From NCBI GenBank assembly GCA_012730045.1, contig JAAYBR010000143.1, positions 26,785-90,784 of the forward strand: a stretch of DNA of 64,000 nt, written 5' to 3'. Shown here in pieces: positions 4,298-50,087 of this stretch. The notes under the pieces were generated by a model. The model did not search any database and was not told the DNA's origin. It saw nothing but the letters and a program-made list of their open reading frames with translations. Position 1 is the stretch's first letter. Every line of letters starts with the position of its first letter. The position numbers were made by a program, and so were the translations under genes. The DNA comes from Candidatus Hydrogenedentota bacterium. Lineage in GTDB: Bacteria; Hydrogenedentota; Hydrogenedentia; Hydrogenedentales; CAITNO01.

Positions 4298-5725
4298 ATG
4301 CCGAAGATTGCCATGATCGGAGCCGGAAGCATTGTCTTCGCCAAAACCCTCTTCAAGGACATCTGCGCCACCCCCGCGCTGCGGGACAGCGAGTTCCGCT
4401 TCATGAGCCGCACGACGACCAAGCTGGAGCGGCTCAAGGCGTACGCGGACCGGGTCATCGCGGAGAACAGCCTGAAGGCCACGGCGATGATCACCACGGA
4501 CCGCCGCGAGGCGCTGAAGGACGCGGACTTCGTCATCGCCATGCTCCAGATCGGCGGCGTGGAGGCCTTTGAGGCGGACTACACAGTCCCCCTGAAGCAC
4601 GGGGTGGACCAGTGCATCGGCGACACGCTGGGGCCGGGCGGCATCTTCCGCGCCCTGCGCACCATTCCCGAGATGCTCTCCATCGCGGCGGACATGAAGG
4701 AACTCTGCCCGAACGCGGTGATGCTCAACTATGTGAACCCCATGGCGGCGGTGTGCTGGGGGCTGGGGACCGTTCCGGGCCTCCAGTATGTCGGGCTGTG
4801 CCACGGCGTGCAGACCACGCTGGACCTCATCGCGGGCTATCTGGGCGTGCCGAAGCAGGAGATAGACTACCTCTCGGCGGGCATCAACCACATGGGCTGG
4901 TTCCTGAAGATGTCGCACAAGGGGCGGGACCTCTACCCGCGCTTCAAGGAGCTGTGCGAGAAACCGGAGTACTACATCAACGAAAAGGTGCGCATCGAGG
5001 TGATGCGGCATTTCGGCTATTTCATGACGGAGAGCACGGGGCACCTGTCGGAATACGTGCCGTGGTTCCGCACCAGCGCGGAGGGCATGGGCCGCTACTG
5101 CGATGAGCCGTCTTTTGGCGGCGAGACGGGCGCGTATTTCAAGTGGTGCCGCCTCATCGCAGACCAGTTGGAGAGCGTGGACATGTTGGCGGACGAGTCC
5201 GCCGTCCTCGACGGGCGCAGCGTGGAGTACTGCTCGTACATTCTGGAGGCGCTCACGACGGGCATCCCCTTCAAGTTCCAGGGCAACGTCCGCAACGAGG
5301 GATACATCACGAACCTGCCGATGGGCTGCTGCGTGGAGGTGCCGGTGTTCGCCGACAAGATGGGCCTGCACCCCACCTTCGTGGGGGCGCTGCCCTCCCA
5401 GTGCGCGGCCCTCAACCTCACGAACGTGAACGTGCAGGGGCTGTCGGTCGAGGCGGCCGTCTCCGGCGACCCGGAACTGGTCGTGGCGGCCTGCGCCCTC
5501 GACCCGCTCACCTCGGCCTGCCTCACCCTCAAGCAGGTGCGCGACATGGTCGCCGACATGCTGGAGGCCGAAAAGCAGTGGCTGCCGCAGTTCGCGGGCA
5601 AGGCCCTCCGGCCCACGCCGCACATTGACACGCCCCCCGGAACGGCCCACGCCTCTGTGCCGCTGGACCCGGCCCTCGCCGTGGTGCACCGCTTCGGGGA
5701 GCTGGCCCGGAAGGCGTCCTCGTAA
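4298..5725 (+). CDS. glycoside hydrolase family 4 alpha-galactosidase / alpha-glucosidase-like (NAD+/Mn2+-dependent)
   Basis: Track ORF 4010..5725 trimmed to MPKIAMIGAGS at 4298. The N-terminal Rossmann motif IAMIGAGSIVFAK and the conserved CHGV and GINHMGWF blocks are typical of GH4 (MelA/AglA-like) enzymes. Confidence 0.75.
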   Translation: MPKIAMIGAGSIVFAKTLFKDICATPALRDSEFRFMSRTTTKLERLKAYADRVIAENSLKATAMITTDRREALKDADFVIAMLQIGGVEAFEADYTVPLKHGVDQCIGDTLGPGGIFRALRTIPEMLSIAADMKELCPNAVMLNYVNPMAAVCWGLGTVPGLQYVGLCHGVQTTLDLIAGYLGVPKQEIDYLSAGINHMGWFLKMSHKGRDLYPRFKELCEKPEYYINEKVRIEVMRHFGYFMTESTGHLSEYVPWFRTSAEGMGRYCDEPSFGGETGAYFKWCRLIADQLESVDMLADESAVLDGRSVEYCSYILEALTTGIPFKFQGNVRNEGYITNLPMGCCVEVPVFADKMGLHPTFVGALPSQCAALNLTNVNVQGLSVEAAVSGDPELVVAACALDPLTSACLTLKQVRDMVADMLEAEKQWLPQFAGKALRPTPHIDTPPGTAHASVPLDPALAVVHRFGELARKASS

Positions 5726-7089: not shown

Positions 7090-9195
7090 ATGAAACACCT
7101 TCCCCTTCTTCTGCTTCTGCTGGCGGCCTGCGCCGCCGTTTTCGCCGCGGAGCCCGGCCAGCCCGCGCCCACGCTGGACGCGCTGCTGAAGGACATCGCC
7201 GGGGACAATGGCCCGGCGCAGTCCCTGGCCCGGCAGCTGCTCCCCCGGCACGGCACGGCGGCGCTGCCGGGACTGGTCGCCCTGCTGGGCGACGAGCGCG
7301 ACCACGTCTGGCGGACCGCCGCCATGGTCATCAAGGACGTGGCCCAGCAGCCGCCCGCCGTGCTGATGGGCGGCGAGACGCCCCAGCCCCCGCGCAGGGC
7401 CGTGCTGGACGCCCTGCTGCCCTGCATCGCCCCGGACCGGCCCAGGCCGCTGATCGAGCGCGCCCTGGCCATCCTTCCGCTGGTGCTGGACGAGGAGACG
7501 GACGTCGCCCCCGTTGCCGCGCTGCTGGAGAATGCCGACCTGCGTGACCGCGCCAAGGCCGCCCTGCACGAGGCGGGCACGATGAAGGCCCTCCAGGCGA
7601 TGGCCCTGGCCGCCGCGGAGACCGCCAACGCCGATTTCCAGTACGCCCTGCTGTGCTCGCTGTTCAACCGGCAGCCGAAACTCGGGTCGGACGCGTGGTT
7701 CGCCGCCAAACTGCTGGAAAGCCCCTGGCCGAAGGTCCGCGCCGCCGCCGCCCGCATCCTCGCGGAAACCGGCCGGCCGGAATTCTGGCCGATGGTGCTC
7801 GCCTCCGCGCGCGCGACCGACGCGACCGCGCAGTTTGAGGCGTGGGACGCCTGCCTCCGCTATGCCGACACGGCGGCCCGCGCGGGGGGCCGCTGGGAGG
7901 AGGCCATGGCCCGCTACCGCACCGTGCTGGCGGAGGCGCCCGACACGGTCCTTAAGGGCGGCGCCATCGCGGGGCTGGGCCGCTTCGGCGATGATTCGGT
8001 CATCCCCGAACTGGCCGCGGTCCTGAACGACCCGAACGCCTCCCAGACCGCCTCTCCCGCCCTGGGCGCCCTGTGCAGTCTGCAGGGCCGCGCCGCGAAC
8101 CTGGGCCTGCTGGATGTGTGGGCCTCGCTCCCGCCGGACGCCGGGGCCGCCCTGCTGCTGAACTTCGGCGCCCGCCGCGACCCGGTGCTCACCCCCCTGC
8201 TGGTGGAGCAGGCGCAGAATGCCGACCCGGCGATGCGCGCCGCCGCGCTGGAGGGGCTGGTGCGCTCCGGCGCGCCGGAGGCCGCCCCCGTGTTGGCGAA
8301 GGCGCTGCTGGACGCCCCCGAGGCGGAGCGCCCGCCCCTGGAGGACCAGGTGCGCCGGCTGGCCAACGACCTGCGCGACCACAACCAGCCCGAGGCGGCG
8401 GGCCGTGCCTACCTTGCCCTCTACCGCACCACCGCCGACCCGGACCTCAAGGCCGCCGCCCTGGAGGGCGTCCGCCGGTATCCCGTGCCCGAGGCCTTTG
8501 ACATTGTCATGGACATGCTCGCCTCCGGCGACGCCGAATCCATGCCCGTCGCGGGCATGATCGGTGTGGCCATGGCGGCCATGGACGCGGGGAAGAAGGA
8601 GGAGGGGCAGAAGATTCTGGACACCCTCATGACCAAGATGGGCGACCCCGCCACGGCCGGCCAGGTGATTGACGCCCTCGGGCGCATGCCCGATCCCGGG
8701 CGCTACGCCGGACAGCTCGGCGCCATCGGGAAATGGAGGGTTGTCGGCCCCTTCGACTGGACCCCCGCCGAGGGCTTCGCCAAGACCTTCATCAACGAGC
8801 CGAACGTGGACCTTTCCGCCGCCTACGACAAGGGGCAGCAGTGGAAGCCCCTCGAAACCGGACATCTCGCCGGGCAGATGGACCTCACCGCACCCCTGGA
8901 AATGCGGGACAGCGCCGTCGCCTTCGCCCACTGTGTTGTCGTGGTGGACGCGGACATGGACGCCACCCTCCGCGGCGGCTCGGATGACGGCCTCAAGATA
9001 TGGGTCAACGGCGAGGTGGTGCACGAGAACGACGTGGACCGCGGCTATGCCCCCGACAGCGACGTGGCCCCCGTCAAGCTCAAGGCCGGGAAGAACGCCG
9101 TGCTGGTCATGATCTCCCAGCGCATGGGCGGCTGGAACTTCGGCCTGCGCCTGACCCGTCCCGACGGCACCGTGCCCGCCTTCACCGTGGAATGA
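7090..9195 (+). CDS. secreted HEAT-repeat protein with C-terminal jelly-roll (lectin/galactose-binding-like) domain
   Basis: Track ORF 6679..9195 trimmed to MKHLPLLLLLLAACAAVFAAEP (signal peptide) at 7090, 15 nt after the oxidoreductase stop. Repeated leucine/alanine-rich HEAT/PBS-lyase-like helices (DRAKAALHEAG, DPAMRAAALEGL, DPDLKAAALEGV). The C-terminus (KIWVNGEVV...GGWNFGLRL) looks like a beta-sandwich. Confidence 0.55.
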   Translation: MKHLPLLLLLLAACAAVFAAEPGQPAPTLDALLKDIAGDNGPAQSLARQLLPRHGTAALPGLVALLGDERDHVWRTAAMVIKDVAQQPPAVLMGGETPQPPRRAVLDALLPCIAPDRPRPLIERALAILPLVLDEETDVAPVAALLENADLRDRAKAALHEAGTMKALQAMALAAAETANADFQYALLCSLFNRQPKLGSDAWFAAKLLESPWPKVRAAAARILAETGRPEFWPMVLASARATDATAQFEAWDACLRYADTAARAGGRWEEAMARYRTVLAEAPDTVLKGGAIAGLGRFGDDSVIPELAAVLNDPNASQTASPALGALCSLQGRAANLGLLDVWASLPPDAGAALLLNFGARRDPVLTPLLVEQAQNADPAMRAAALEGLVRSGAPEAAPVLAKALLDAPEAERPPLEDQVRRLANDLRDHNQPEAAGRAYLALYRTTADPDLKAAALEGVRRYPVPEAFDIVMDMLASGDAESMPVAGMIGVAMAAMDAGKKEEGQKILDTLMTKMGDPATAGQVIDALGRMPDPGRYAGQLGAIGKWRVVGPFDWTPAEGFAKTFINEPNVDLSAAYDKGQQWKPLETGHLAGQMDLTAPLEMRDSAVAFAHCVVVVDADMDATLRGGSDDGLKIWVNGEVVHENDVDRGYAPDSDVAPVKLKAGKNAVLVMISQRMGGWNFGLRLTRPDGTVPAFTVE

Positions 9196-9221
9196 ACCCA
9201 AACGCATCTGGAGAAAACATC

Positions 9222-10385
9222 ATGCGCGCATTTTCACCGCTCTTTGCCGGGGCCCTGCTGGTGTCCGGCCTGTCCTTCGGGGCGGAACCCCCGGTTTTTG
9301 AGGGCCGCCGGATCGGCACCGGCACCTATGAGTCCGCCGCCATCTTCGACGTGGACAACGACGGCGTCCTCGACCTCTTCTCCGGCGGGTTCTGGTATCC
9401 CGGCCCCGGGTTCGACCGCGCCGTCAAGGCCTGCGAGCCCATGTACCAGGACACCTATTACGACGACTTCTCGAACTATCCCATGGACGTTAACGGCGAC
9501 GGCTACCTGGACATCGTCACTGGCGGCTGGTGGGGCTTGAACCTGTCCTGGCGGGAGAATCCCAAGGGCCAGGAGACCGAGTGGACCACCCACCTCGTGG
9601 CCGAGGTGGGGAATGTCGAGCGCGCCCTCTTCTGCGACCTCGACGGCGACGGCGTGCCCGAGGTCATGCCCGTGACGAATCCCGTGCACATCTTCAAGCT
9701 CAAGAAAGACGCCCAGGGCAAGGGTGCCGGCGGCTTTGAGCAGTTCACCATCGCGGTGAAGGGCGGCGGCGGCCACGGCGCGGGCGCGGGCGACATCAAC
9801 GGCGACGGCCGGCCCGACCTGGTCTTCGCCGGCGGCTGGTTCGAGAACCCGGAAAACACCTACGACATGAACGCCTGGGTGTGGCATCCGGAGTTCGAGG
9901 CCCCCATGGCCAGCATTCCCATGCTCGTGCACGATGTGAACGGCGACGGGCTGGCCGACCTCATCATCGGCGAGTCGCACAACTACGGTCTCTACTGGCT
10001 GGAGCAGGGCAAGGCCGACGGCAAGCGGACCTGGACCAAGCACGACATTGAGACGCGCCGTTCGCAGTTCCACGACCTCCAGCTCCATGACATGGACAAC
10101 GACGGCAAGCCCGACCTCGTGACCGGAAAGCGCTACCACGCCCACAACGGCCACGATCCGGGGGCGAACGACCCCGTCGGCCTCTACTACTACCGCATCA
10201 ACGGCGGCGCCTTTGAGCGGGTCACGGTGGACTACGGCACCCCCGACAAGCACAGCGGCGCGGGCATCTACTTCTGGGTCGAGGACGTGGACAAGAACGG
10301 CTGGAAGGACATCCTCGCCCCCGGCAAGGAAGGCCTCCACCTCTTCCTAAACCAGGGTCCCGCCCCCGTCCCGCCCGCCAAGTAA
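9222..10385 (+). CDS. secreted FG-GAP repeat protein (seven-bladed beta-propeller, integrin-alpha-like)
   Basis: Track ORF 9000..10385 trimmed to the ATG at 9222 (GGAGAAAA upstream), with a signal peptide. There are seven DxDxDG-type calcium-binding FG-GAP repeats (DVDNDGVLDLFSGG, DVNGDGYLDIVTGG, DLDGDGVPEV, DINGDGRPDLVFAGG, DVNGDGLADLIIG, DMDNDGKPDLVTG, DVDKNGWKDILAPG). Confidence 0.7.
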   Translation: MRAFSPLFAGALLVSGLSFGAEPPVFEGRRIGTGTYESAAIFDVDNDGVLDLFSGGFWYPGPGFDRAVKACEPMYQDTYYDDFSNYPMDVNGDGYLDIVTGGWWGLNLSWRENPKGQETEWTTHLVAEVGNVERALFCDLDGDGVPEVMPVTNPVHIFKLKKDAQGKGAGGFEQFTIAVKGGGGHGAGAGDINGDGRPDLVFAGGWFENPENTYDMNAWVWHPEFEAPMASIPMLVHDVNGDGLADLIIGESHNYGLYWLEQGKADGKRTWTKHDIETRRSQFHDLQLHDMDNDGKPDLVTGKRYHAHNGHDPGANDPVGLYYYRINGGAFERVTVDYGTPDKHSGAGIYFWVEDVDKNGWKDILAPGKEGLHLFLNQGPAPVPPAK

Positions 10386-10660: not shown

Positions 10661-11668
10661 ATGAAAAAGATTCTCAAGCCCGGCCAGCATGTGGTGGGCA
10701 TGGACATCGGCGGCACGAAGATGATGGCCGCCGTGTTCGACAGCGATTTCAACATCCTGGGCGTGTGCCGCAAGAAGAGCAAGGCGAAGTCCCGCGAGCG
10801 CGCCGAGGACCGGATTATCAAGATCATTGAGACGGCCATCGAGGCGGCGGGCGGCCCCAAAATCAGCGGCATCGGCGTCGGCTCCCCCGGCCCGCTTGAT
10901 CCGGACACGGGGGTGATCATAGACACGCCGAACCTCGGCTGGAAGGATTTTCCCCTGGCCGACGTGCTGAAGAAGAAGTTCGGGGTGCCGGTCGCGGTGG
11001 ACAACGACGTCAACGTGGGCACCTACGGCGAGTGGTGTTTCGGCGAGATCAGCGGGTGCCGCCACGTGGTCGGCATCTTCCCCGGAACGGGCATCGGCGG
11101 GGGCATCATCGTGGACGGGAAGATGCTCCACGGGTTCTCCGGCGCGGCGGGCGAAATCGGCCACATGACCGTCGAGGTCGGCGGCCCCTTCTGCGGCTGC
11201 GGCAAGCGCGGATGCCTGGAGGCCGTCGCCTCCCGCATCGCCATCTCCAAGGAGATCGCGGCGCTGGCGATCCGCGAGGACGCCCCCTTCATCCTTGAAA
11301 AGTGCGGCGCCGACCTGGCGGCCATCCGCAGCGGCGTCATCGCCGAGGCCGTCGCCGCCGGCGAGAAAAAGGTGGAGGACGTCGTGCGGCGCGCCGCCTA
11401 CCACATCGGCATCGCCGCCGGGAACCTGATCAACATCCTCAGCCCCGAGGTGGTGGTGGTCGGCGGCGGGCTCGTCACCGCCATGCCCGACCTTTTCATC
11501 AAGGAGATCAGGCGCGGCGTGGCCGACCATGCCATGCCCTTCCTCCGCAAGAACGTCCGCATCCTCCCCGCCGCCCTGGGCGACAACGCCACGGTCATGG
11601 GCGCGGCCCACATGGCCGCCACGCGGCTCAAGGCCGCCCCGGCAAAGCGGAAGGCCCGCGCGCGGTAG
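10661..11668 (+). CDS. ROK family sugar kinase (glucokinase / N-acetylglucosamine kinase-like)
   Basis: ATG at 10661 (GGGAGA upstream). N-terminal ATPase motif GMDIGGTK. The ROK zinc motif CGCGKRGCLE and the GEIGH motif are present. Confidence 0.8.
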   Translation: MKKILKPGQHVVGMDIGGTKMMAAVFDSDFNILGVCRKKSKAKSRERAEDRIIKIIETAIEAAGGPKISGIGVGSPGPLDPDTGVIIDTPNLGWKDFPLADVLKKKFGVPVAVDNDVNVGTYGEWCFGEISGCRHVVGIFPGTGIGGGIIVDGKMLHGFSGAAGEIGHMTVEVGGPFCGCGKRGCLEAVASRIAISKEIAALAIREDAPFILEKCGADLAAIRSGVIAEAVAAGEKKVEDVVRRAAYHIGIAAGNLINILSPEVVVVGGGLVTAMPDLFIKEIRRGVADHAMPFLRKNVRILPAALGDNATVMGAAHMAATRLKAAPAKRKARAR

Positions 11669-11879
11669 GGGGGGGTGTTTCGGTGGAGAAGGCAGGCACC
11701 TCGTCATGGACAATGACGGGCGTGCTGTGGCCAGAGCGCATCAGGGGTGGGATGGGGCGTTGTCGGGAAGATGCCGGGCACGGCATGTCAACTGTGAACA
11801 TGCCCTATTCTGCGGCAAGCTCCTCCCGCGTTTTTGAGAGCGCGGCCGGGGGGCGCGCGTGCAGTTTCAGGGTGCCCGG

Positions 11880-12230
11880 CGTGCTCTCCCACCGTTGCAC
11901 GGTCGAAAATCGCGGCGGGGGGACCGCGCCGGCCTTGGGGAAACGCGCGGTCCCAGTCGCTTTTCGTGTGCCCCCGCGCGGGCAAGCCCGCGCGACGAAA
12001 GTCGGCACCAGACTGCCGCACTCCAAGGCGCCGCGCGCCGCGCGGACCCGGGGCTGCGGTAATGGGCGGCGGCCTGCTTGGACAATATGCGGGTATCCCG
12101 TTGGGACAACAAACACCACATCACGGGCCCGGGGAGCGTTCATGCCGGTCGCAGGCGTTTCTCGAGAGGCCTTTTGGTGCGATTGCCCTGGCGGGAGAAT
12201 GGACACTGCCAAACGGCCTGTGCTACACTT
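11880..12230 (+). repeat. dispersed structured intergenic repeat, copy A (long form)
   Basis: It shares a ~150-bp core (GGCCTTGGGGAAACGCGCGG...TTTCGTGTGCCCCCGCGCGGGCAAGCCCGCGCGA...GGCAGCAAGCCACCGCACTCCAAGGCGCTGCGCGC...CGGACCCGGGGCTACGGTGATGGGCGGCGGCCTGC) and a ~120-bp 3' extension with copy B. It ends about 10 nt before tRNA-Arg. Confidence 0.6.
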
Positions 12231-12239
12231 TTCGCGTTC

Positions 12240-12316
12240 GCGCCCATAGCTCAGTTGGATAGAGCGCTTGCCTCCGGAGCAAGAGGCCACAGGTTCGAGT
12301 CCTGTTGGGCGCGCCA
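12240..12316 (+). tRNA. tRNA-Arg (anticodon CCG)
   Basis: GCGCCCATAGCTCAGTTGGATAGAGCGCTTGCCTCCGGAGCAAGAGGCCACAGGTTCGAGTCCTGTTGGGCGCGCCA. The anticodon loop is CTCCGGA with a CCG anticodon. The TPsiC arm is GGTTCGAGTCC, the discriminator is G and the 3' CCA is encoded. The coordinates cross-check against an overlapping track ORF. Confidence 0.85.
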
Positions 12317-12357
12317 TTTCTTTTAACCGGGCGGTTCTCCCCGCGTCCTCCCCTCCC

Positions 12358-13512
12358 CTACGCGAAATCCTCCAGCGCCAGGGCCGGATTTTGCGCCCAG
12401 GCGGTCTGGGCGCGGTAGTTGCGGTCGGCGGCGGGGTTCCCGTTGATCCCCAGCTCGCCGTAGGTGCCGATGAACTCGAAGCCCAGGCGCGCCGCCCCGG
12501 GGTATACCCGCGCAATGTCCGCCGCGTAATCCCGGTCCACTGTTCGGGTGGAGGTGTTGAACCAGTGGAGGTAGCCGTAGCGGCGGTGTTCCGGCGCCCC
12601 GGCGAACTCTTCGGGGAATCCGGGTTTCCGCACCATCTCGTCGAGGGTGTACTGCCAGACGGTCCCCGGGGGCACGGCGTCCACGTAGGGCATGGCGGGG
12701 AAGGACGCGATCCGGTGGTATCCGCGGTAGGTGCTGTTGATGAAGAGGCCGTCCGGCTTGGCGGCGAGGGCGTGGCGCAGCAGGCCGCGCGTGGCCACCA
12801 CGCAGTCCATCAGGTTTCCGTTGGTCTCGAAGCCCAGCCCCGCCCGCGCGCGGACCGCGCTTTCTGACGGGTTGACAATGAAGTCGCCCATCTCGTAGTT
12901 CACGCCGCCAATGGCGAAGGTTTCCAGCATCCACTCCAGCCCGTCCCGCCACCACGCCTGGTTCTCCGCGAGGGACGGGTCGAGCACGGGGGCCACCTCG
13001 CGGCCGCCGCCGTCCTCGAAGGCGGTGCTGGCCCGCTCGGGGTGTTTCCGGAGATAGGTGGCGAGGTTGAACGGGTGGTCCCCCTCATAGTAGTAGCCGC
13101 CGTAGGCGCACAGGCCCACCCCTGGAAGAATCGCCACGCCATGGTCCCGGGCGTAGGCCGCCAGCTCCTTGGCCGCCTTCACCCCGCCGTGGGCGTCGCG
13201 GAGAAACCCCCAGACAATAACCGCGTGGACGCCAATCCGCGCGGCGTAGTCCACGAGGCGTTTGAAGCCTGTCAGAAACGATTCGGGGCGCTTGCCGTAG
13301 GGGAAGGCCTGCTCCGAGGCCGCCATCTTCCGGCTGACCGCCTCCGGCTCGTCGTCCCAGGTCATCCGCGCGTCCCAGCACCACAGGATGACCTTCATGG
13401 GCCGCGGCGCGGACGGCTCCGCGGCCGCGGCCATGCCTCCCGCCGCGCCCAACGCGGCGGCAGTCGCCATTCCCCGGAGAAAACCGCGCCTCCCCAGCCT
13501 GCCGTGGTTCAT
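12358..13512 (-). CDS. Tat-exported hypothetical protein (possible TIM-barrel glycoside-hydrolase-like)
   Basis: Track ORF 12358..13566 trimmed to MNHGRLGRRGFLRG at 13512 (AAGGAG 8 nt upstream). A twin-arginine motif is followed by an Ala-rich h-region. I recognise no confident family. Confidence 0.5.
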   Translation of the reverse strand: MNHGRLGRRGFLRGMATAAALGAAGGMAAAAEPSAPRPMKVILWCWDARMTWDDEPEAVSRKMAASEQAFPYGKRPESFLTGFKRLVDYAARIGVHAVIVWGFLRDAHGGVKAAKELAAYARDHGVAILPGVGLCAYGGYYYEGDHPFNLATYLRKHPERASTAFEDGGGREVAPVLDPSLAENQAWWRDGLEWMLETFAIGGVNYEMGDFIVNPSESAVRARAGLGFETNGNLMDCVVATRGLLRHALAAKPDGLFINSTYRGYHRIASFPAMPYVDAVPPGTVWQYTLDEMVRKPGFPEEFAGAPEHRRYGYLHWFNTSTRTVDRDYAADIARVYPGAARLGFEFIGTYGELGINGNPAADRNYRAQTAWAQNPALALEDFA

Positions 13513-13631
13513 GCCTTTGCTCCTTTCCGGAACCCGGGGAGAGCATACCCGATGCGGCAAAGGCACGCAACGCGCCGGCCCCTCCCGATCGCCGGATAAG
13601 ACATCGCGGGAACCGAATCCGTGGCGGGAAC

Positions 13632-13712
13632 GAGATTGCCGCGCTTCGCTCGCAACGACAGGAAAACGTGCGTCGTTGCGAGGCGGCCGCCCCGGGCCGC
13701 CGCGGCAATCTC
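13632..13712. repeat. long compound hairpin element (family 2, copy 2)
   Basis: The outer 12-bp stem GAGATTGCCGCG / CGCGGCAATCTC encloses an inner 11-bp stem CTCGCAACGAC / GTCGTTGCGAG plus a GCGGCC...GGCCGC mini-hairpin. It shares the GAGATTGC and TCGCAA(C/T)GAC motifs with the hairpin at 92-165. Confidence 0.55.
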
Positions 13713-14019
13713 TTGTCGGAAGACCTCAGGGTCTCCACACCTCATGGATGAACACGCTCCCTTCGCACCGCCGACACTTTCAGCGCGGATCCCCAAGGTG
13801 TGCGTTCCCTCGAACACGTTCACGACCGTTTCTCATCCGGCGATTCGGGCTCTCCCTCCCCGGCTCAGGGCAATCGCACTAAAATCCGCAGGCTCTTTCT
13901 GGATGGAGTCCGGCCATTGTCCGTTGTGCGACCTCTTCAACGCTGAAAGCGTTGCCGAATTTAGCCCAGGCCAGGCCGCCGCCCGAAGGGCCCGGCCTGC
14001 CCTGGGGTGCCCGGACAGA

Positions 14020-14340
14020 AGGAATCATGCCCCAACGGGGCAGCCGAAATTAAGGCGGGGAGCGCCGCGCAGGCCTTGGGAAAACGCGCGGCCATCGCCG
14101 TCTTTCGTGTGCCCCCGCGCGGGCAAGCCCGCGCGAAGGAAGGCGGCAGCAAGCTACCGCACTCCAAGGCGCTGCGCGCTGTACGGACCCGGGGCTACGG
14201 TGATGGGCGGCGGCCTGCCTGGGCTATGTGCGGATGCCCCGTTGGGACAACAAAGACAGAATCACATAACCAAGGGACGTCCATGCCGCTCGCAGGCGCT
14301 TCTCGAGAGGCATTTTAGTGCGGGATTGCCCTGCTCCCCG
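14020..14340 (+). repeat. dispersed structured intergenic repeat, copy B (long form)
   Basis: Best-preserved copy. The 5' CATGCCCCAACGGGGC is mirrored by GCCCCGTTGGG about 200 bp downstream. It contains the internal palindrome CGCGCGGGC-AA-GCCCGCGCG. It ends ~85 nt upstream of the aldolase gene. Confidence 0.6.
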
Positions 14341-14425
14341 GCTTGACTCACGGCGTACTTCCTGCAAGAATGGGCGCTCCCGGTCCGCTGTCAGGACCGC
14401 AACCAGACACATGAACGGAGTTCCC

Positions 14426-15202
14426 ATGGCCGCACTGGGCAAGCAGATCCGCCTGAACCGCATTTTCAGCCATCCGTCGGGGCGCATCCTGTCGGTGGCG
14501 GCGGACCACCTGATCAACTATTCCATCGGCATGCCGGAGGGGCTGCGCCGCATCGGGGACACGGTGCGCCGGATCATCGAGGCGCGGCCGAGCGCCATCA
14601 CGCTGAACAAGGGCGTGGCCATGCGCTGCGTCACGAAGGAGCTGGCGGGCCGGATTCCGCTGATCATCCAGCAGATGGCCCCCCGGGCCGGCCAGGACGG
14701 GTTCGCCGACCATGCGGAGGTGGAGGAGGCGGCGGCCCTGGGCGCGGACGCCATCGCGGTCGCCCTGTTTGTCAAGGACCCCGGCGAGTTTGCGTTTCTC
14801 AAGCGGCTGGCGCAGACGGTCCGCGAGGCGGAGCGCTTCGGCCTGCCGGTCATCCCGCACATCTACCCCATTGTTGTGAGGGACGGCGCTTCGGTCATCA
14901 GCGACCGGGCCGAGGACATCGCCTATGCGGCGCGCGTGGGGCTGGAGATGGGCGCGGACGTGGTGAAGATTCCCTACACCGGCGACGCCGCATCGTTCGC
15001 CGACATCGTTTCGGTCACGCCGATCCCGGTGGTGACCGCCGGCGGGCCGAAGTGCGAGACGTTGGAGGACGCCGCCGCCATGATGCGGGACGTGGTGCGC
15101 AGCGGCGCGGCGGGCAGCACCGTCGGGCGCAATGTCTGGGGCTTCCCCGACATCGCGGAGGCCATTGCCACGCTCAAGGCGGCCCTGGAGATTGACCGGT
15201 GA
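14426..15202 (+). CDS. class I aldolase, DhnA/DeoC-LacD family (fructose-bisphosphate aldolase-like)
   Basis: Track ORF 14318..15202. ATG at 14426 preferred (GGAG 6 nt upstream); the alternative ATG is at 14411. Conserved VKIPY lysine Schiff-base block and VTAGG. A TIM-barrel aldolase pattern. Confidence 0.7.
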   Translation: MAALGKQIRLNRIFSHPSGRILSVAADHLINYSIGMPEGLRRIGDTVRRIIEARPSAITLNKGVAMRCVTKELAGRIPLIIQQMAPRAGQDGFADHAEVEEAAALGADAIAVALFVKDPGEFAFLKRLAQTVREAERFGLPVIPHIYPIVVRDGASVISDRAEDIAYAARVGLEMGADVVKIPYTGDAASFADIVSVTPIPVVTAGGPKCETLEDAAAMMRDVVRSGAAGSTVGRNVWGFPDIAEAIATLKAALEIDR

Positions 15203-19307: not shown

Positions 19308-20915
19308 TCAGGCCAGCGAGTTCAGATACTCCTCCAGACGGGTGTATCCGTCCGGGCCGGTCTCCGCGCCGTCGGCGGGGTTGGCGGGGTCGAGGCCGTG
19401 GGTGCGCTCCCAGTCGTCCGGCATGCCGTCGTGGTCGGTGTCCGGGGGCGCGGGAAGGCTGTTCAGTTCGGGCCAGCCGCCGACAGCGGCCTGGGAGTCT
19501 ATGATTCCCTTTCCCCCGCCCTCGTAGGTCTCCCCGAATTTCGCGGTGCCGGTGCGCACCTCGTGGACGATGCGGGTGTCCACGGCGTCCCGCCGCAGGG
19601 AGCACCCCGCCTGCCGCAGCACCGCCTCGAAGGCGTCCTCCGCAGACTGTGTTTCCACGGGGGCCACGACGTAGGGGGTGGTGACGCGGAGGGTTGCCTC
19701 GGTGGCTTCGCCGTCGGGGGCGAAATGGACGCCGCCGTTCCAGTTGTCGCGGGTGATCTTCGGGAAGCCCCAGACGAAGTTGCCGTCGCAGTACATCTTT
19801 CCGCGCGGGTCCTTCTGGAGGAAGATGCGTCCGCGCACCTCCCTGTCCGTGGCGGGGCCGTGTTTGTAGTAGTTGTTGATCCAGTTGCGCGGCCACATCT
19901 CGCCGCCGTAGGCGCTGTTGAACCCCCAGTTGTAGATGACGTTGTTGCGCATGTCCATGAGCCCGGACGCCTCGTTGCCCGAGGCGCGGGGGTTCCGGCT
20001 GGAGTGGTGCGCGAGGAGGTTGTGGTGCCACGAGCCGCCCGGGCCGCCCCACAGGCCGCCGTAGCCGTGCTTCCCCTTCTTGTGTATCGAGTCGGTGAGG
20101 CTTTCGGTCACCATGCACCACTGCACCGTGGCGTTGGCCCCCTTGTTGATGGAGAGCGTCTCGTCCACCCCCCAGCTCACGGAGCAGTGGTCCACCAGGA
20201 GATGGTCCCCCTCCCCGCCGAAAGCGTCCTGCTCCTTCTTGGTCTCGTCGCCCGGACGGAACCGCATATACCGCACAATCAGATGCTGGGTGTTGAAACT
20301 GACCTGGTAGTCCTTCACGCAGATGCCGTCGCCCGGGGCGGTCTGGCCCGCAATGGTCAGAAAGGGGTTCCTGATCTTGATCTGGGACGCCAGGGCGATG
20401 TTTCCCGAGACACGGAAGACGACGGTCCGCGGCCCCTCCGCCTCGCAGGCCTCCCGGAAACTGCCGGGGCCGCTGTCGCCCAGATGGGTCACCTCAAATA
20501 CCCTTCCGCCGCGCCCGCCGATCGTGTACTTGCCGAAACCCTCGGCCCCCGGAAACGCCGGGACGCGGTCCGGACGGAAACGGGACAGCACGAGAAACGG
20601 CGCGTGGTCCTGGTAGGCCGTGTCGCAGAGCCATCCCCCGGGCAGCACGATGCGGTCAAAGCGTCCGGTCACGGATTCCACGCCCTCTCCGAACACGGCA
20701 ACGGAGGTGTTCTCGTGCGGCTCAATGCGTCCGGAAAAGGAAACCGCGAGCGTTCCAGAAAGGGCCCATCGTCCCGAGGTGACGGTCTCCCCCGCCGTTC
20801 CGTCGGTGATCACGAAGGTTCTTCCGTCCGCCGGAAGGGGCTCCTGGGCCGCGCAGGTTCCGGCGGCCAGCAGAAGGGAGAAAACCGCCGGGAAACAAGA
20901 GGAAAACCGGTGCAT
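19308..20915 (-). CDS. secreted pectate-lyase-like right-handed beta-helix protein (PL1-like) with C-terminal Ca-binding/dockerin-like tail
   Basis: Track ORF 19308..22022 trimmed to MHRFSSCFPAVFSLLLAAGTCAAQ (signal peptide; AAGGAG upstream). Motifs LLVDHCSVSWGVDE and HHNLLAHHSSRNPR resemble the vWiDH and RxPxxR blocks of pectate lyases. The C-terminus DTDHDGMPDDWERTHGLDP is an EF-hand/dockerin-like segment. Confidence 0.55.
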   Translation of the reverse strand: MHRFSSCFPAVFSLLLAAGTCAAQEPLPADGRTFVITDGTAGETVTSGRWALSGTLAVSFSGRIEPHENTSVAVFGEGVESVTGRFDRIVLPGGWLCDTAYQDHAPFLVLSRFRPDRVPAFPGAEGFGKYTIGGRGGRVFEVTHLGDSGPGSFREACEAEGPRTVVFRVSGNIALASQIKIRNPFLTIAGQTAPGDGICVKDYQVSFNTQHLIVRYMRFRPGDETKKEQDAFGGEGDHLLVDHCSVSWGVDETLSINKGANATVQWCMVTESLTDSIHKKGKHGYGGLWGGPGGSWHHNLLAHHSSRNPRASGNEASGLMDMRNNVIYNWGFNSAYGGEMWPRNWINNYYKHGPATDREVRGRIFLQKDPRGKMYCDGNFVWGFPKITRDNWNGGVHFAPDGEATEATLRVTTPYVVAPVETQSAEDAFEAVLRQAGCSLRRDAVDTRIVHEVRTGTAKFGETYEGGGKGIIDSQAAVGGWPELNSLPAPPDTDHDGMPDDWERTHGLDPANPADGAETGPDGYTRLEEYLNSLA

Positions 20916-21067
20916 GGGGCGCGCTCCTTGCGCCGGCCTGTCCTTGCGCCGGCCGCATTTTCCGCCAGTCTGAACCGCCTTCCCGGCGCGTGTCAACCCC
21001 CGGGGCGCGGGCGGCGTTGTTCCAGCAGACGCGAAAGCAAGATAGCCCAAAGCCCTTTCCTGTCTAT

Positions 21068-21129
21068 GGAACGTGGACGAAGTTCCTGCCTGTCCTCCCC
21101 CTCCCGTCCACGTTCCTCTTTTTTTGTCC
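21068..21129 (+). terminator. orphan plus-strand intrinsic-terminator-like hairpin (12-bp stem + T9)
   Basis: GGAACGTGGACG - 25 nt - CGTCCACGTTCC followed by TCTTTTTTTGTCC. There is no plus-strand CDS upstream. The loop is long for a canonical terminator. Confidence 0.35.
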
Positions 21130-21169
21130 GCGCGTGTTTTCCGGAGGACGGAGGACGGTGTCAGAACAG

Positions 21170-21400
21170 CCCGCGCAGAACAGGCATGCCCCAACGGGGC
21201 GGCCGAAATTGCGGCGGGGAGTGCCCGCCGGCCTTGGGGAAACGCGCGGCCACGGTCGTTCTTCGCGGGCTCCCGCGCGGGCAGGCCCACGCGAAGAAAG
21301 GCGGCAGCAAGCCACCGCACTCCAAGGCGCTGCGCGCTGTGCGGATCCGGGGCCGCGGGGGGCTGGACGTCATGGACAGGCAAGACACCCCCCGCGCGCT
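21170..21400 (+). repeat. dispersed structured intergenic repeat, copy C (3'-truncated)
   Basis: It matches copy B from CATGCCCCAACGGGGCGGCCGAAATT through ...CGGATCCGGGGCCGCGG. It lies between the gspF stop and the pectate lyase start. Confidence 0.55.
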
Positions 21401-21472
21401 TCCCTGCCCGTGCCGTCTCCATGGGATTCGGTTGGCCGCCAACCCCCGGCGCCGCGAGTTCCGGGTTTTGGC

Positions 21473-22687
21473 CTAGGCCCCAATGGTGGAGCTGAGGGTG
21501 AGCATGGGCAGGAGCATGGCGATGACGAGGAAGCCGACGACGACGCCCATGACCACGATGAGGAGGGGCTCGAAGAGGGCGGCCATGGCCTTGACGGCGC
21601 GGTCCACCTCGATGTCGTAGGCGTCGGCGACGCGCTTGGCGACGGCGCCCACGCGGCCGCTCTCCTCGCCGACGGCGAACATGCTCACGACCATGGGGGT
21701 GAAGAACAGGCGCTTGCGGAGGCACTCGCTGAGGCTTTCGCCCTCGGTGATGCCGATGTGGATCTGGCTGACCTCGTCGCGGATGAGGCGGTTGGTCATG
21801 GTGTCGGCGGTGATCTTGATGGACGTGAGGATGGGGACGCCGTTGTCCATGAGGGTGCCGAGGGTGCGGGCGAACTTGGCCATCTCGTACTTGACGATGA
21901 CGGTTCGGATGACGGGAACGCGCAGAAGGAAGGTGTCCATCTGCCGCCGGCCGGTGTCGGTGCGGACATGGCGCACCACGGCGGTGCCCAGGACGAAGAG
22001 GACGATCAGGACGGCCCACCACCAGGTGCCCATGAAGTCGCAGAAGCCCATGACCATGCGGGTGGGCAGGGGAAGTTCGGCGTTGAACTCCTCGAAAATG
22101 GTGACAAACTTGGGGAACACGAAGGAGACGAGGATGAAGATGGCGATGGAGCCGATGGACAGCAGGAAGGCCGGGTAGATCATGGCGGAGGTGGCCTTGC
22201 CGCGCAGCTCCTCCTCCTGCTCGCCGAAGGCGCAGATGCGCCAGAGCACCTCCTCCAGCATGCCGCCGGTTTCCCCCGCGCGGACCAGGTTGCTGTACAT
22301 GGCGGGGAAGAGGTCGGGGTGCCGGTCCATGGCGTCGGCGAGGCTGTTGCCCTTCTGGACGTCGTCGCGGAGCTGGTCAATGACCTTGGCCAGTTTGGGG
22401 TTTTCGGTCTGCTCGACCAGGGTGCGCAGGGCGCGGGTGATCATCATGCCGGACTCGCACAGGTTGGCGAGCTGGCGCAGGAAGAGGTTGCGGTCCTTCA
22501 GGCGGATGCGGGACAGGGCGTCGCGGAGGGAGTCCTTCGCCTGCTTCTCGCGGAACTCCTCCACGCGGAGGGGGAAGAAGCCCATGTCCCGCAGGCGGGA
22601 GATGGCGGCGCGCTGGTTCTCGGCCTCGACCATGCCCGTGACCGGCGCGCCGGGGCCCTTTTTCGCCTCATACTGGAACTGGGGCAT
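21473..22687 (-). CDS. gspF: type II secretion system / type IV pilus inner-membrane platform protein GspF/PilC
   Basis: 404 aa. Two GspF repeats with three TM helices. The 5' end overlaps the gspE stop by 20 nt. Confidence 0.85.
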   Translation of the reverse strand: MPQFQYEAKKGPGAPVTGMVEAENQRAAISRLRDMGFFPLRVEEFREKQAKDSLRDALSRIRLKDRNLFLRQLANLCESGMMITRALRTLVEQTENPKLAKVIDQLRDDVQKGNSLADAMDRHPDLFPAMYSNLVRAGETGGMLEEVLWRICAFGEQEEELRGKATSAMIYPAFLLSIGSIAIFILVSFVFPKFVTIFEEFNAELPLPTRMVMGFCDFMGTWWWAVLIVLFVLGTAVVRHVRTDTGRRQMDTFLLRVPVIRTVIVKYEMAKFARTLGTLMDNGVPILTSIKITADTMTNRLIRDEVSQIHIGITEGESLSECLRKRLFFTPMVVSMFAVGEESGRVGAVAKRVADAYDIEVDRAVKAMAALFEPLLIVVMGVVVGFLVIAMLLPMLTLSSTIGA

Positions 22688-28794: not shown

Positions 28795-29481
28795 CTATTC
28801 GCCGGCGCTGTCGTACTGCTCCAGGTAGGGGTAGATGTGCCCCGTGATGAAGGATCGCACCACCCGGAGGTTGGCGATGACGGTCTCCGGCGCGTCCGGC
28901 GCCACCTGCTGCTTCCCGAAAATCCCCTTCACCTCGACGAAAATCTCGTTGTTGCTGTGCCGGAAGGTCTCAATGTTCACATAGAGCGTTCCCGGGCACT
29001 CCGCCGTCTCCGGCAGCACATAGCGCAGCCCGGCGGTGGCGATGGGGCGGTTGAACACCGCCATGGCGCGGGGCTCCTGGCGGCACACACGCTCAATGAG
29101 AAAGCGCCGGCAGTCCCCCTCCCCTGTGAGGGCGAAGGTGGAGCGCACCGTGGCCGCGTGCACCATGAACCCGGGAATCCCGCGCGCCTCGCCCAGCCGC
29201 GGCATGACGGTGCGGACCCGCTCCTCGAAGTCGGCCATGGGAATGTCGGCCCACTCCTCGATGATGAGGGCGCGGTCGGGCAGGAACAGCAGGACGGACT
29301 GGGCGCGGCCCCGCCGCGAGTAGAAGCGCGCCTGGGCCGTGTCGCTCACCTCAATGCTGTCATATCCGGCGCCGGTCTGGGAGAGCTCAAAGTAAAGCTT
29401 CTGGAGGGCGCCCCGGTTGAAGGGCTGGCCGGGGTGGATCAACTCTACGCAGAAATGGATGACTCTGTCTTCAGCCTGCAT
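28795..29481 (-). CDS. hypothetical protein (228 aa)
   Basis: Codon usage is consistent with the neighbours. It sits 44 nt upstream of the GT2 gene on the same strand. No recognised domain. Confidence 0.45.
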   Translation of the reverse strand: MQAEDRVIHFCVELIHPGQPFNRGALQKLYFELSQTGAGYDSIEVSDTAQARFYSRRGRAQSVLLFLPDRALIIEEWADIPMADFEERVRTVMPRLGEARGIPGFMVHAATVRSTFALTGEGDCRRFLIERVCRQEPRAMAVFNRPIATAGLRYVLPETAECPGTLYVNIETFRHSNNEIFVEVKGIFGKQQVAPDAPETVIANLRVVRSFITGHIYPYLEQYDSAGE

Positions 29482-29574
29482 GATGCGCCCGTCCGGGGTT
29501 GCGGTTTGCGATGGGAGTATAGCGTTGCCGGGGCGGGGGCTTCAACGGCCCGCCAAGGAAATCGAACCAGGACG

Positions 29575-29720
29575 CCGCCCATCACCGCAGTCCCGGGTCC
29601 GCGCAGCGCGCAGCGCCTTGGAGTGCGGTGGCTTGCTGCCGCCTTTCTCCGCGCGGGCTTGCCCACGCGGGGGCACACGAGAAACGATGGTGGCCGGCGC
29701 TTCCCCAAGGCCGTTGCGGT
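29575..29720 (-). repeat. dispersed structured intergenic repeat, copy D (short form, inverted)
   Basis: The reverse complement matches the core GGCCTTGGGGAAGCGCCGGCC...TTTCTCGTGTGCCCCCGCGTGGGCAAGCCCGCGCGGAGAAAGGCGGCAGCAAGCCACCGCACTCCAAGGCGCTGCGCGCTGCGCGGACCCGGGACTGCGGTGATGGGCG. It lies in the divergent promoter region between 29481 and 29771. Confidence 0.55.
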
Positions 29721-29770
29721 CCCCCCCCGCCGCTTTGCATTCTGCGCGGGTTCCCGCTACCGTATACGGC

Positions 29771-30781
29771 ATGGAGACGGACAACCGAGAGGCGGGCTCC
29801 GGCGGGCGCATGGGGCTGCTGCTGCTGCAGACGGGCTCCCCGGACACCTGCGACCTCGCGGGGGTGCGTCGCTACCTGCGCCGGTTTCTCATGGACCCCC
29901 ATGTGATCTCCCTCCCTTTTCCCCTGCGCGCCCTGCTGGTCCACGGGATCATCGCCCCGTTGCGGGCGCGGAAGAGCCTGGAACTGTACCGGCACATCTG
30001 GACCGGCCAGGGGGCCCCGCTGACGGCGCACACCCGAAACCTGGCGGCGGCCATCGCGGCGCGCCGTCCGGACCTGTGCGTGCGGCACGCCGCGGTCTAC
30101 GCCAGCCCGACCCCCGGCGACGCCCTGCGGGACTTTGTCCAGGAGGGCGTCGGGGAGGTGCTTGTGCTTCCCCTCTTTCCCCAGCACGCCACGGCGAGCC
30201 GGGGCGCCGCCCTGGCGGCGGTTCGGGCGGCGGCCGCGCGGGCGCCGCATGCGCCCGCTCTCCGGGAGCTCCCCCCCTTTTATGACGCCCCGTGGTTCAT
30301 CGAGCCCCTCGCCCGCCTGTATGGTCCCCTGTTGCGGGACTTTGCGCCGGACCGGGTGATCTTCAGTTTTCACGGACTCCCCCTCGCCCAGGCCGCACGG
30401 GACGCGGCGGCGGGGCCGGAATGTGACTACGTGGGACAGTGCAAGGCCACCATGGACGCCCTGGTCGGGGTGCTTGGGCTGGATACGGACCGATGCCGTC
30501 TGGGGTGGCAGTCCCGGTTTGGGCGCGGCTGGCTGGCCCCGGACACGGAGAGCCTGCTTGCCGCCGCCCCGGCCGGGGGAGCCGCGCGGGTCGCCCTCTG
30601 CGCGCCCTGTTTTGTCGCCGACTGCCTGGAAACGCTGGAGGAACTGGGGCTGCGGGGACGGGCGTGTTTTATGGCGGCCGGGGGCCGGGAACTGCTGCTG
30701 CTGCCCTGCCTGAACGTTTCGGACGACTGGGTGGAGGCGGTATGCCGGCGGGCCCTTCCCCCGCCGAAAGCCAAAAACTGA
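29771..30781 (+). CDS. hemH: ferrochelatase
   Basis: Track ORF 29417..30781 trimmed to the ATG at 29771 (alternative ATG at 29810, MGLLLLQTGSPDT). Conserved LLLQTGSPDT N-terminus, FSFHGLP, and the cysteine-rich C-terminus CAPCFVADCLETLEE consistent with a [2Fe-2S] ferrochelatase. Confidence 0.8.
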   Translation: METDNREAGSGGRMGLLLLQTGSPDTCDLAGVRRYLRRFLMDPHVISLPFPLRALLVHGIIAPLRARKSLELYRHIWTGQGAPLTAHTRNLAAAIAARRPDLCVRHAAVYASPTPGDALRDFVQEGVGEVLVLPLFPQHATASRGAALAAVRAAAARAPHAPALRELPPFYDAPWFIEPLARLYGPLLRDFAPDRVIFSFHGLPLAQAARDAAAGPECDYVGQCKATMDALVGVLGLDTDRCRLGWQSRFGRGWLAPDTESLLAAAPAGGAARVALCAPCFVADCLETLEELGLRGRACFMAAGGRELLLLPCLNVSDDWVEAVCRRALPPPKAKN

Positions 30782-47938: not shown

Positions 47939-48690
47939 GCCCAACCTCCCGGCCAGTCGGCACCCAAAGCGTCCTTCTGACCAGTTTCTGCCATGAGCGG
48001 GCCGCCGCGCCCTTCTTGGAGGCGCTGGCCGCCGTGGGTGTCCGCGCCTGGACCGAGGGCGGGGAGAACGAGGCGCCCGTGGGGGTGTGCGTGGGCCCTT
48101 CCGATGTCCCTGCGGCGGCGGAAGTGCTCCGGCGGCATGTCGAGGCGCGTGTCGCGGAACTGGAGGCTTTTGACGGTGCCGCCCTCGGGGGGGTGGACGC
48201 CGACTGGTCCGAGACGCCGTGGCACGAGGTGACCTTTTTCGCGGACAGGGGTGAGGCGGACGTCTTTGCCGGGGTTCTCGAAAGCCACAGCGTCCCTTAC
48301 CGCTTTTCGGTTCCGAGCATTATCCCCCGCGCGTACTTCTATGGAAAAGGCCCAGAACGTGGTCTGCGTGTGTTCGTACCGGAACCTTTCTTGGCATGGG
48401 CGGTGGCCTGGGTGGAGGCCGGCCAGCAGCGGAGTGATCTGGAGGAGCTGGGCATCGAGCCCGACGCGGATTTGGAAAGCTACTATGACGCCGTGGAGGC
48501 GGGGACGGTCTGCCCCGAATGCGGCGGCAAGGACATCGAGACCCTCCCCCCCGTCCCGGCGAAACCCAAGGACTTCCTCGGATTTCTTTTGGGGCTGGTG
48601 AAGGACGTCATCCTCCTCGCGGTCGCGCGGGAGATTCCCGACGACGGGGACAAGGCCCACGTCTGCCGCGACTGCGGCTGTGAGTGGTAG
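47935..48690 (+). CDS. hypothetical protein with C-terminal zinc-ribbon (CPECGG...CRDCGCEW)
   Basis: The start overlaps the GDPD stop (ATGA). 251 aa. The N-terminal half is of unknown fold; the C-terminal half has four Cys in a ribbon arrangement flanking a hydrophobic helix. Confidence 0.45.
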   Translation: MSPTSRPVGTQSVLLTSFCHERAAAPFLEALAAVGVRAWTEGGENEAPVGVCVGPSDVPAAAEVLRRHVEARVAELEAFDGAALGGVDADWSETPWHEVTFFADRGEADVFAGVLESHSVPYRFSVPSIIPRAYFYGKGPERGLRVFVPEPFLAWAVAWVEAGQQRSDLEELGIEPDADLESYYDAVEAGTVCPECGGKDIETLPPVPAKPKDFLGFLLGLVKDVILLAVAREIPDDGDKAHVCRDCGCEW

Positions 48691-48697
48691 GGGCCGC

Positions 48698-49720: not shown

Positions 49721-49833
49721 GCGGGCATATGGCATCACCTGAACAAAAAGCCCGACAACAATACCTTCAGCACGCACAGGGGCTTCTTCGTTTTTCCTTC
49801 CCGAGCGCTCCGGAGCGCCGAAGGCGCGCCATA

Positions 49834-50076: not shown

Positions 50077-50087
50077 GACACAGGTCT

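Follow-up and report, generated by a model that had tools for sequence, protein, structure and literature searches.

The DNA analyzed here is a 64,000-nt stretch (hereafter the window) of contig JAAYBR010000143.1 from a Candidatus Hydrogenedentota bacterium, and the subject of this work is a repeat element present in four of its intergenic regions, among them those upstream of a tRNA-Arg gene (copy 1) and a DeoC-type aldolase gene (copy 2; Table 1). [quoted passage not shown] The window sequence and a repeat finder located four look-alike stretches at the positions where that annotation had put them. A 153-nt stretch is common to the three direct copies, which are 80-82% identical over it; in addition, copies 1 and 2 match as a 278-nt pair (11904-12181 and 14045-14322, 80% identity), and the inverted copy 4 matches the other copies at 81-87% identity over 112-164 nt. 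Each copy contains the 16-mer CCGCACTCCAAGGCGC once, and the rest of the window does not contain it; looser matches are at chance level. The internal motifs reported earlier were found as well: CGCGCGGGCAAGCCCGCGCG, a perfect 9-bp palindrome in copies 1 (11975-11994) and 2, carries two substitutions in copy 3 (one in the loop and one in the stem) and one in copy 4; GGCCTTGG/CCAAGGC motifs are present in the repeat; and CCCCAACGGGG is located at 14030-14040 and 21189-21199, mirrored in copy 2 by CCCCGTTGGG ~200 nt downstream. According to Pfam matches and the genes called on the source contig, all four copies are intergenic, and the look-alike peptides translated from the copies are DNA-repeat artefacts, as had been stated.

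The earlier conclusion that four copies in one window imply a genome-wide family is supported by related metagenome-assembled genomes (MAGs). When a 23-nt pattern from the conserved core was searched for in one genome of each species, 107 stretches (L001-L107) were obtained, and the copies nearest to those of the window (80-92% identity over 150-470 nt) were all found in Candidatus Hydrogenedentota MAGs, which hold at least 20 related copies. At least 15 stretches with the exact 23-mer belong to a close MAG, JAPXRP01 (GCA_033813475.1), one contig of which matches 3.5 kb of the window at 96.2% identity. The named relatives of the T2SSE protein of the window (70-78% identity) are all Candidatus Hydrogenedentes/-ota, and the window matches contigs of the ENA metagenome assembly ERZ778039, from anaerobic-digester samples (PRJEB20855). 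The scan also returned a few MAGs labelled Clostridia and Dehalococcoidales, for which binning contamination is possible. A BLAST search of copy 2 against PLSDB plasmids gave no match.

Ends and target duplication of the intact copy

Copy 2 is homologous to the full and left-arm copies of the Hydrogenedentota MAGs from 13864-13866 through 14333. The extent assigned to it earlier was right in position and wrong in its limits, and it had overlooked the terminal inverted repeats (TIRs), a 10-bp target-site duplication (TSD) and a 154-nt left arm. In a multiple alignment of 23 copies, the full element starts with CAGGGCAATCGCAC(T/C)AAAAT and finishes with the reverse complement of this sequence, giving a TIR (CAGGGCAATCGCAC...) of 14-20 bp. 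The left terminus of copy 2 is also present in L015, L042, L065, L076, L078, L089, L091 and L106. The 10-mer that flanks copy 2 on both sides occurs nowhere else on either strand of the window. The full-length MAG copies L015, L042 and L089 have TIRs as copy 2 does, and each is flanked by a 10-bp duplication of its own, with 9/10 matches in L042 (432 bp), 9/10 in L089 (444 bp) and 8/10 in L015 (433 bp). Terminal repeats combined with a duplication of fixed length are the signature of a staggered-cut, DDE-type transposition. Furthermore, an inner inverted pair is nested inside the outer repeats. The two arms, each ~115-125 nt, have their outer and inner ends in common and differ in their middles, and the nested inner pair shows that they are diverged copies of each other; in L069, a right-type arm stands on either side of the core.

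Upstream of the aldolase gene, two relatives have no counterpart of copy 2. In L192, the aldolase has 96% amino-acid identity to that of the window, and the nucleotide identity is 92.5% in the first 963 nt and 85.5% across 3.2 kb. Upstream of this gene, L192 is homologous to the window only from 14338, 4 nt inside the right duplication, and no element sequence was found in its 86 nt before that point. In L189-L191, which represent a more remote relative (aldolase 88% identical), the intergenic region at this place is 56 nt long and the element is absent. For copies 1 and 4, exact-protein look-ups gave only assemblies with identical spacing, from the same strain in the case of copy 4.

Table 1 Positions in the window of the four copies, their parts and the neighbouring genes (REP, repetitive extragenic palindrome).
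Feature	Position	Strand	Sequence or basis
ROK-family gene, neighbour of copy 1	10661-11668	+	
Copy 1: core and right arm behind a diverged 5' part, without left arm	~11871-12190	+	
Terminator-like 5-bp stem with T-rich tract	11947-11960		
Copy 1 heart	11975-12038		
Copy 1 right terminal repeat	12171-12190		
tRNA-Arg gene, neighbour of copy 1	12240-12316	+	
Hypothetical gene, neighbour of copy 2	12358-13566	-	
Target-site duplication, left copy	13856-13865		CTCCCCGGCT; 10/10 versus right copy
Copy 2: intact 468-bp element (left arm, core, right arm)	13866-14333	+	MAG homology, TIRs, target duplication
Left TIR	13866-13885	+	CAGGGCAATCGCACTAAAAT
Inner inverted repeat, left half	13962-13983	+	TAGCCCAGGCCAGGCCGCCGCC; reverse complement of 14206-14226 save one extra base
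Core common to all copies, ~165 nt	14051-14215	+	Core-only MAG copies; alignment of 19 cores
Terminator-like 5-bp stem with T-rich tract	14088-14101		
Heart (REP-type module), ~65 nt	14116-14179	+	
Heart hairpin 1	14116-14135		CGCGCGGGCAAGCCCGCGCG
Heart hairpin 2	14143-14160		GCGGCAGCAAGCT(A/G)CCGC
Heart tag	14161-14169		ACTCCAAGG, then CGCTGCGCGC
Inner inverted repeat, right half	14206-14226	+	GGCGGCGGCCTGCCTGGGCTA
Terminator-like 5-bp stem with T-rich tract	14298-14311		
Right TIR	14312-14333	+	ATTTTAGTGCGGGATTGCCCTG; left TIR reverse complement with a 2-nt insertion and one substitution
Target-site duplication, right copy	14334-14343		CTCCCCGGCT
DeoC-type aldolase gene, neighbour of copy 2	14426-15202	+	
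Hypothetical gene, neighbour of copy 3	19308-20915	-	
Copy 3: 5' module and core, without terminal repeats	21170-21360	+	5' module CCCGCGCAGAA...CCCCAACGGGG
Copy 3 heart	21274-21337		
T2SSF gene, neighbour of copy 3	21473-22687	-	
Hypothetical gene, neighbour of copy 4	28795-29481	-	
Copy 4: core and shortened 5' module, without terminal repeats	29562-29750	-	
Copy 4 heart	29606-29669		
Ferrochelatase gene, neighbour of copy 4	~29771-30781	+	

A conserved heart beside RAYT genes

The best-conserved part of the element is internal. The heart, which comprises two hairpins and a tag, has a mean pairwise identity of 96% (66 columns) compared with 72-74% for the remaining core; because L001-L107 were chosen by the exact heart 23-mer, this value is inflated over those 23 columns, and over the 41 columns outside the search pattern the identity is 95.6%.

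The heart is accompanied by a transposase gene in related genomes. In L003, a contig of the close MAG that is 96% identical to the window, the open reading frame (ORF) at 376-954 contains an HUH motif (NHYH) and a Y-x-H-N-N-P motif, passes the NCBIfam equivalog model NF047646, REP-associated tyrosine transposase (RAYT), with 82.4 bits (cutoff 80, E=2.8e-23), and matches the sequence of PDB 4ER8 (E. coli TnpA-REP) at E=2e-4. It had no Pfam match at E<=0.01, and many of its 1,708 homologues carry PF01797. The heart starts 15 nt past the stop codon of this RAYT, and a doublet of units lies upstream. The RAYT of L108, 68% identical, likewise has the double-hairpin heart ~20 nt past its stop codon and an REP doublet upstream, and in both L003 and L108 the heart abuts the stop codon alone, without the arms. 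A second paralogue, in L070 (62% identical), has heart copies on its flanks too.

This association extends to more distant relatives. In 80 metagenomic loci encoding RAYT relatives at 46-68% identity, we counted the exact 9-mer GCACTCCAA in the flanks. Its density was 4.15/kb up to 100 nt from the gene, 1.67/kb at 101-300 nt, 0.24/kb at 301-1000 nt and 0.033/kb beyond 1 kb; the tag is thus ~125-fold enriched within 100 nt of the RAYT gene, and it is present within 300 nt in 53 of the 80 loci, in both orientations and on both sides. To have a RAYT gene flanked by tag units is the defining property of REP/RAYT systems. The genome scan described above also returned loci from Acidobacteriota and Verrucomicrobiota; what these, and the loci labelled Clostridia and Dehalococcoidales, have in common with the window is limited to a smaller unit, which consists of AAAG, a GC-rich hairpin and then CACTCCAAGGCGC, and is usually arranged in inverted pairs 80-140 nt apart. 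Over all fetched loci, a perfect stem of at least 6 bp abuts the ACTCCAARG tag in 161 of 251 units, compared with ~1.4% in shuffled or random controls. The tag-abutting hairpin is formed by 31 distinct stem sequences, indicating that the hairpin is kept while its sequence changes; the stems covary across phyla.

Meanwhile, the Hydrogenedentota MAG P2IB.85 (L020, L024, L028, L032, L037, L038, L079 and L105) has tag-plus-hairpin units arranged tail-to-tail, as a tag, ~30 nt and an inverted tag, with other hairpins and without the arms or hairpin 1 of the window copies. It is a second Hydrogenedentota lineage, with a different architecture made from the same tag-plus-hairpin unit.

The homologues of the L003 RAYT number >1,700 at E<1e-5, and the named members of this clade come from Hydrogenedentota, Acidobacteriota, Verrucomicrobiota, Armatimonadota, Chloroflexota, Zixibacteria, Marinimicrobia and Clostridia. 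We tentatively suggest, at less than even odds, that the tag-plus-hairpin unit (a GC-stem hairpin followed by ACTCCAARG) is the recognition signal of a large, undescribed RAYT clade whose repeat is conserved across phyla and was captured in a DDE-type MITE in Hydrogenedentota.

The heart also bears on the MITE proposal of the initial annotation. For copy 2 the proposal is supported by its TIRs, its perfect 10-bp TSD, the 8-9/10 TSDs of the MAG copies and the absence of the element upstream of the aldolase gene in relatives. It falls short for the other three copies, which lack one or both terminal repeats, and it did not consider that the core is an REP-type module tied to RAYT. A plain DDE-type MITE family, in which the partial copies are deletion products and the resemblance to RAYT repeats is incidental (for example, because a RAYT gene is a frequent neighbour of the MITE), would account for the TIRs and 8-10/10 duplications of copy 2 and the three MAG copies and for the one terminal repeat kept in copy 1; truncation by deletion does occur, as the 5' edge of copy 3 coincides with a deletion or rearrangement junction relative to two relatives. 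This explanation is nevertheless unlikely. First, an identity of 96% in the heart versus ~73% elsewhere, arms included, is not expected of a decaying MITE. Second, the tag and hairpin surround RAYT genes in organisms without these arms, with covarying stems beside the tag across phyla, and the heart stands without arms at the RAYT stop codon in L003 and L108. Third, many core-only copies have common boundaries.

Proposed mechanism, mosaic forms and alternatives

We regard the four sequences, with a probability of roughly 0.7, as one intact and three partial copies of a selfish mobile element that is mosaic and non-coding and carries an REP/RAYT heart in a MITE bounded by TIRs and a TSD. Most likely, a RAYT whose gene lies in another part of the genome uses the heart as its substrate. 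In a first layer, this HUH/Y1 enzyme would recognize and cleave the heart; if it works as E. coli TnpA-REP and the IS200/IS605 transposases do, it would bind single-stranded DNA at the hairpin and at the TTGGAGT foot beside it. We propose that such a substrate constraint keeps the heart nearly invariant while the rest drifts; RAYT action would also explain why some copies, among them copies 3 and 4, consist of the core and lack terminal repeats. In a second layer, the core lies between the two arms, and the 468-bp unit would have been inserted by a different, staggered-cut DDE-type transposase that left the 10-bp duplication; the existence of the full 468-bp form shows that the core also travelled inside the TIR-bounded MITE. 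The action of a RAYT on these copies, the kind of enzyme that moved copy 2 and the order in which the two layers were combined are our inferences. The copies adjoin the promoter-like sites of their neighbours (see below) and do not overlap them, and any effect on those genes would be incidental.

The partial copies were examined against the same scheme. Copy 1 has the right terminal repeat only, with no remnant of a left arm upstream, and copies 3 and 4 are without terminal repeats. In L049, L078 and L003, copies made up of the core alone match the window from 14051/14054 to 14213/14215, and many MAG copies consist of the left arm and the core with the same end point (~14214 equivalent) and without a recognisable duplication. 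The left flanks of the left-arm copies contain no conserved target sequence of the kind that an IS200/IS605-like mechanism would predict. With several combinations of arm and core, the family is a mosaic, and a DDE mechanism alone does not account for all of its forms.

The forms observed (left arm and core, core alone, core and right arm and, in L069, a core with a right-type arm at either end) are like the mosaics of bacterial interspersed mosaic elements (BIMEs), and Di Nocera et al. (PMC3733652) have described repeat families formed by long inverted repeats at the flanks of RAYT-like genes. The element could accordingly be a pure REP/REPIN, BIME-like and dispersed by RAYT only, with the TIRs and duplication of copy 2 left by an older, unrelated MITE or produced by chance; we regard this as highly improbable. 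Four independent full copies in different contexts have the same arm-core-arm composite, each with its own 8-10/10 duplication, which indicates that the composite itself transposed. The 10/10 duplication of copy 2 is unique in 64 kb and not a chance match, and HUH/Y1 transposition, as in IS200/IS605, is not known to make target duplications.

Two further observations concern individual copies. In the L078 copy, a separate ~190-bp element (~4555-4747), with imperfect inverted repeats that end in CTAG, has come to lie between left arm and core, which shows that other miniature elements are active in these genomes. Copy 3 is located at a synteny breakpoint (window 20962-21472 versus L193 3530-5758 and L192 3867-4950). 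L193 and L192, two close relatives, both have a 1.77-kb gene for formate-tetrahydrofolate ligase (FTHFS) between T2SSF and the region homologous to 20962-21177, and no FTHFS gene is present anywhere in the window. Copy 3 starts within the last codons of an FTHFS remnant, at a shared AGCCCGCGCA microhomology (21167-21178). The junction suggests a deletion or replacement of FTHFS that involved the element, and the position of copy 3 at a junction where close relatives have an additional gene hints that the repeats take part in rearrangements.

Several points weigh against the combined REP/RAYT and MITE reading. No RAYT was found in the 64-kb window by tblastn, and Pfam detected no transposase of any kind in 40 ORFs of the window; the RAYT link for this genome therefore rests on closely related MAGs. 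The tag is TTGGAGT (ACTCCAA on the other strand), not the canonical GTAG/GTGG, and GGAGTG/CACTCC is absent from PMC3733652 and PMC6006769. Each element in the window has one canonical unit, hairpin 2 is imperfect (a perfect stem of 4-5 bp), and the window copies may be decaying relics that no longer serve as substrates. The choice of loci by the heart 23-mer, given above with the identities, belongs here as well. On the side of the second layer, no CAGGGCAATCGCAC end pair at insertion sequence (IS) spacing was found in the window and ~190 fetched loci, where only MITE-sized pairs occur, and there is no autonomous IS with CAGGGCAATCGCAC ends in the fetched loci; this negative covers the window and these loci, not the full genome. 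The copies with left arm and core, lacking the right arm and a duplication, are explained cleanly by neither layer. Finally, the left flank of L192 is not significantly similar to that of the window (score 18 versus a random mean of 16.7); since it does not align significantly, the empty-site evidence is one-sided, with a clean right side.

The sRNA proposal of the initial annotation found no support in Rfam, covariation, folding or promoter and terminator checks. The Rfam scan gave no match in the repeat at the gathering score (whole window) or at E<=10 (11850-14420). With RNAalifold, the 19 cores had a covariation term of +0.53 and a two-sided change in 1 of 38 pairs; the region where covariation could inform is nearly invariant. 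Copy 2 folds unremarkably on both strands (z = -1.36 and -1.40). Terminator-like matches inside the element are at chance (3 versus 2.8 expected) and have weak 5-bp stems (Table 1), and no promoter-like site was found inside the element with a consensus that may not fit this phylum. Just outside the right ends of copy 1 (12200-12229) and copy 2 (14343-14371), there are matches to a sigma-70-like promoter (9/12, both with a TG extension); the -35 hexamer of the latter overlaps the last base of the target duplication. The simplest view of these sites is that they are the tRNA-Arg and aldolase promoters, and their place outside the right end indicates that copy 2 was inserted against the promoter-like site without disrupting it.

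It thus appears very unlikely that the copies are sRNA genes or a cis-acting RNA (a leader, stabiliser or terminator) conserved for its fold. The GC-rich hairpins, the fact that three of the four copies lie upstream of a gene that runs in their own direction and the weak terminator-like stems with T-rich tracts would suit such a role, and REP elements elsewhere affect mRNA stability and termination (PMC6006769, PMC3733652). However, the repeat lacks an Rfam match, an unusual folding energy and a covariation signal, the promoter-like hexamers lie outside it, its terminator-like matches are at chance, and copy 3 is antisense to both of its neighbours; in addition, terminal repeats with a target duplication show insertion, not gene duplication. 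The selfish REP-like repeat, which the initial annotation had set against its own RNA proposal, comes close to what the evidence shows.

Other repeats of the window were noted. An inverted pair of Acido-Lenti-1 (RF01687), 103 nt apart, was detected by Rfam at 49814-49859 (-) and 49963-50008 (+), with 64 and 56 bits, between convergent queA-like (48680-49720) and PLD-type (50088-51479) genes. Of 18 Acidobacteriota loci, 4 have Acido-Lenti-1 within 100-450 nt of REP units, in one case (L010) as an inverted pair. As a component of the RAYT system it was rejected, being present in 0 of 20 RAYT loci; in its behaviour it is more like a dispersed palindromic repeat than an sRNA gene present in a single copy. 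In the left arm of copy 2, at 13939-13975 (-), a weak match resembling Acido-Lenti-1 (16 bits, E=1.8) over a CCCAGGCCAGGCC...GGCCTGCCCTGGG hairpin is probably chance or a distant resemblance. Past the Acido-Lenti-1 pair, a 29-nt unit, CTCAAGGGGGAACCAATGGCCGGTCTTCT, is perfectly duplicated in tandem at ~50022-50078, in the region of the 3' end of the PLD-type gene. The internal DNA repeats at 9000-10385 encode the Asp-rich, calcium-binding-type motifs of an FG-GAP/VCBS-like protein, whose orthologue in L196 has Pfam FG-GAP matches, and are unrelated to the element.

For the annotation of this genome, a candidate novel sRNA is removed and the spurious ORFs with ALECGSLLP, GSKLPHSK and AAASxRTPK peptides are explained; ORFs of these types are probably also present in gene calls of these phyla. 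An REP/RAYT pair with a tag shared across phyla offers a tractable system for studying what a RAYT reads. The element would be a natural chimera of an REP module and a TIR/TSD MITE, and, if this is true, a single element has the handles of two unrelated transposition systems.

Comparison with known systems

Copy 2 resembles the bacterial MITEs (Correia/NEMIS, RUP, ERIC, Nezha) in being small (468 bp) and non-coding, in its 14-20-bp TIRs and 10-bp duplication, and in belonging to a multi-copy, intergenic family with insertion just upstream of a promoter-like site. Unlike them, it has its best-conserved part in the internal heart, not at the termini; furthermore, one or both TIRs are missing from most copies, and the search for a parent IS with the same ends gave none. 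The ends start with CAGGG and the duplication is 10 bp, a possible likeness to the ISAs1 family, which has CAGGG ends and 8-10-bp duplications; no ISAs1-type transposase and no IS with the ends of the element is present in the window or the fetched loci.

With the REP/BIME REPtrons of E. coli and other Proteobacteria and the REPINs of Pseudomonas (PMC6006769, PMC3733652), the element shares a short GC-rich hairpin with conserved foot bases, extragenic copies that are probably many per genome, frequent inverted doublets and a Y1/HUH transposase gene flanked by the repeats, which is seen here in relatives. In contrast to these REPs, described as species-specific and GTAG/GTGG-tagged (PMC6006769), its foot is (CC)TTGGAGT (ACTCCAARG on the other strand) and this tag is conserved across phyla. 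Furthermore, the Hydrogenedentota version has two different hairpins with one canonical unit per element, its unit is embedded in a larger TIR mosaic, and the action of a RAYT on it is putative.

A parallel in layout may be drawn with the 'TIRtrons' (TIRYT), in which RAYT-like genes have long inverted repeats on their flanks that bear no relation to GTAG REPs; one group of them is from Acidobacteria (Di Nocera et al. 2013, PMC3733652). Both have longer, partly self-complementary inverted repeats beside RAYT-like genes in moderately abundant families, and Acidobacteria is a phylum where the present unit is common. The motif reported for TIRtrons is GGGGWSAS, not the present tag, in a comparison made by description and not by repeat sequence (PMC3733652). 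Taken together, the element is a variant of known repeat types and leaves the general picture of bacterial repeats as it is: an REP/RAYT-type repeat with a non-canonical, cross-phylum tag, carried in a TIR/TSD MITE.

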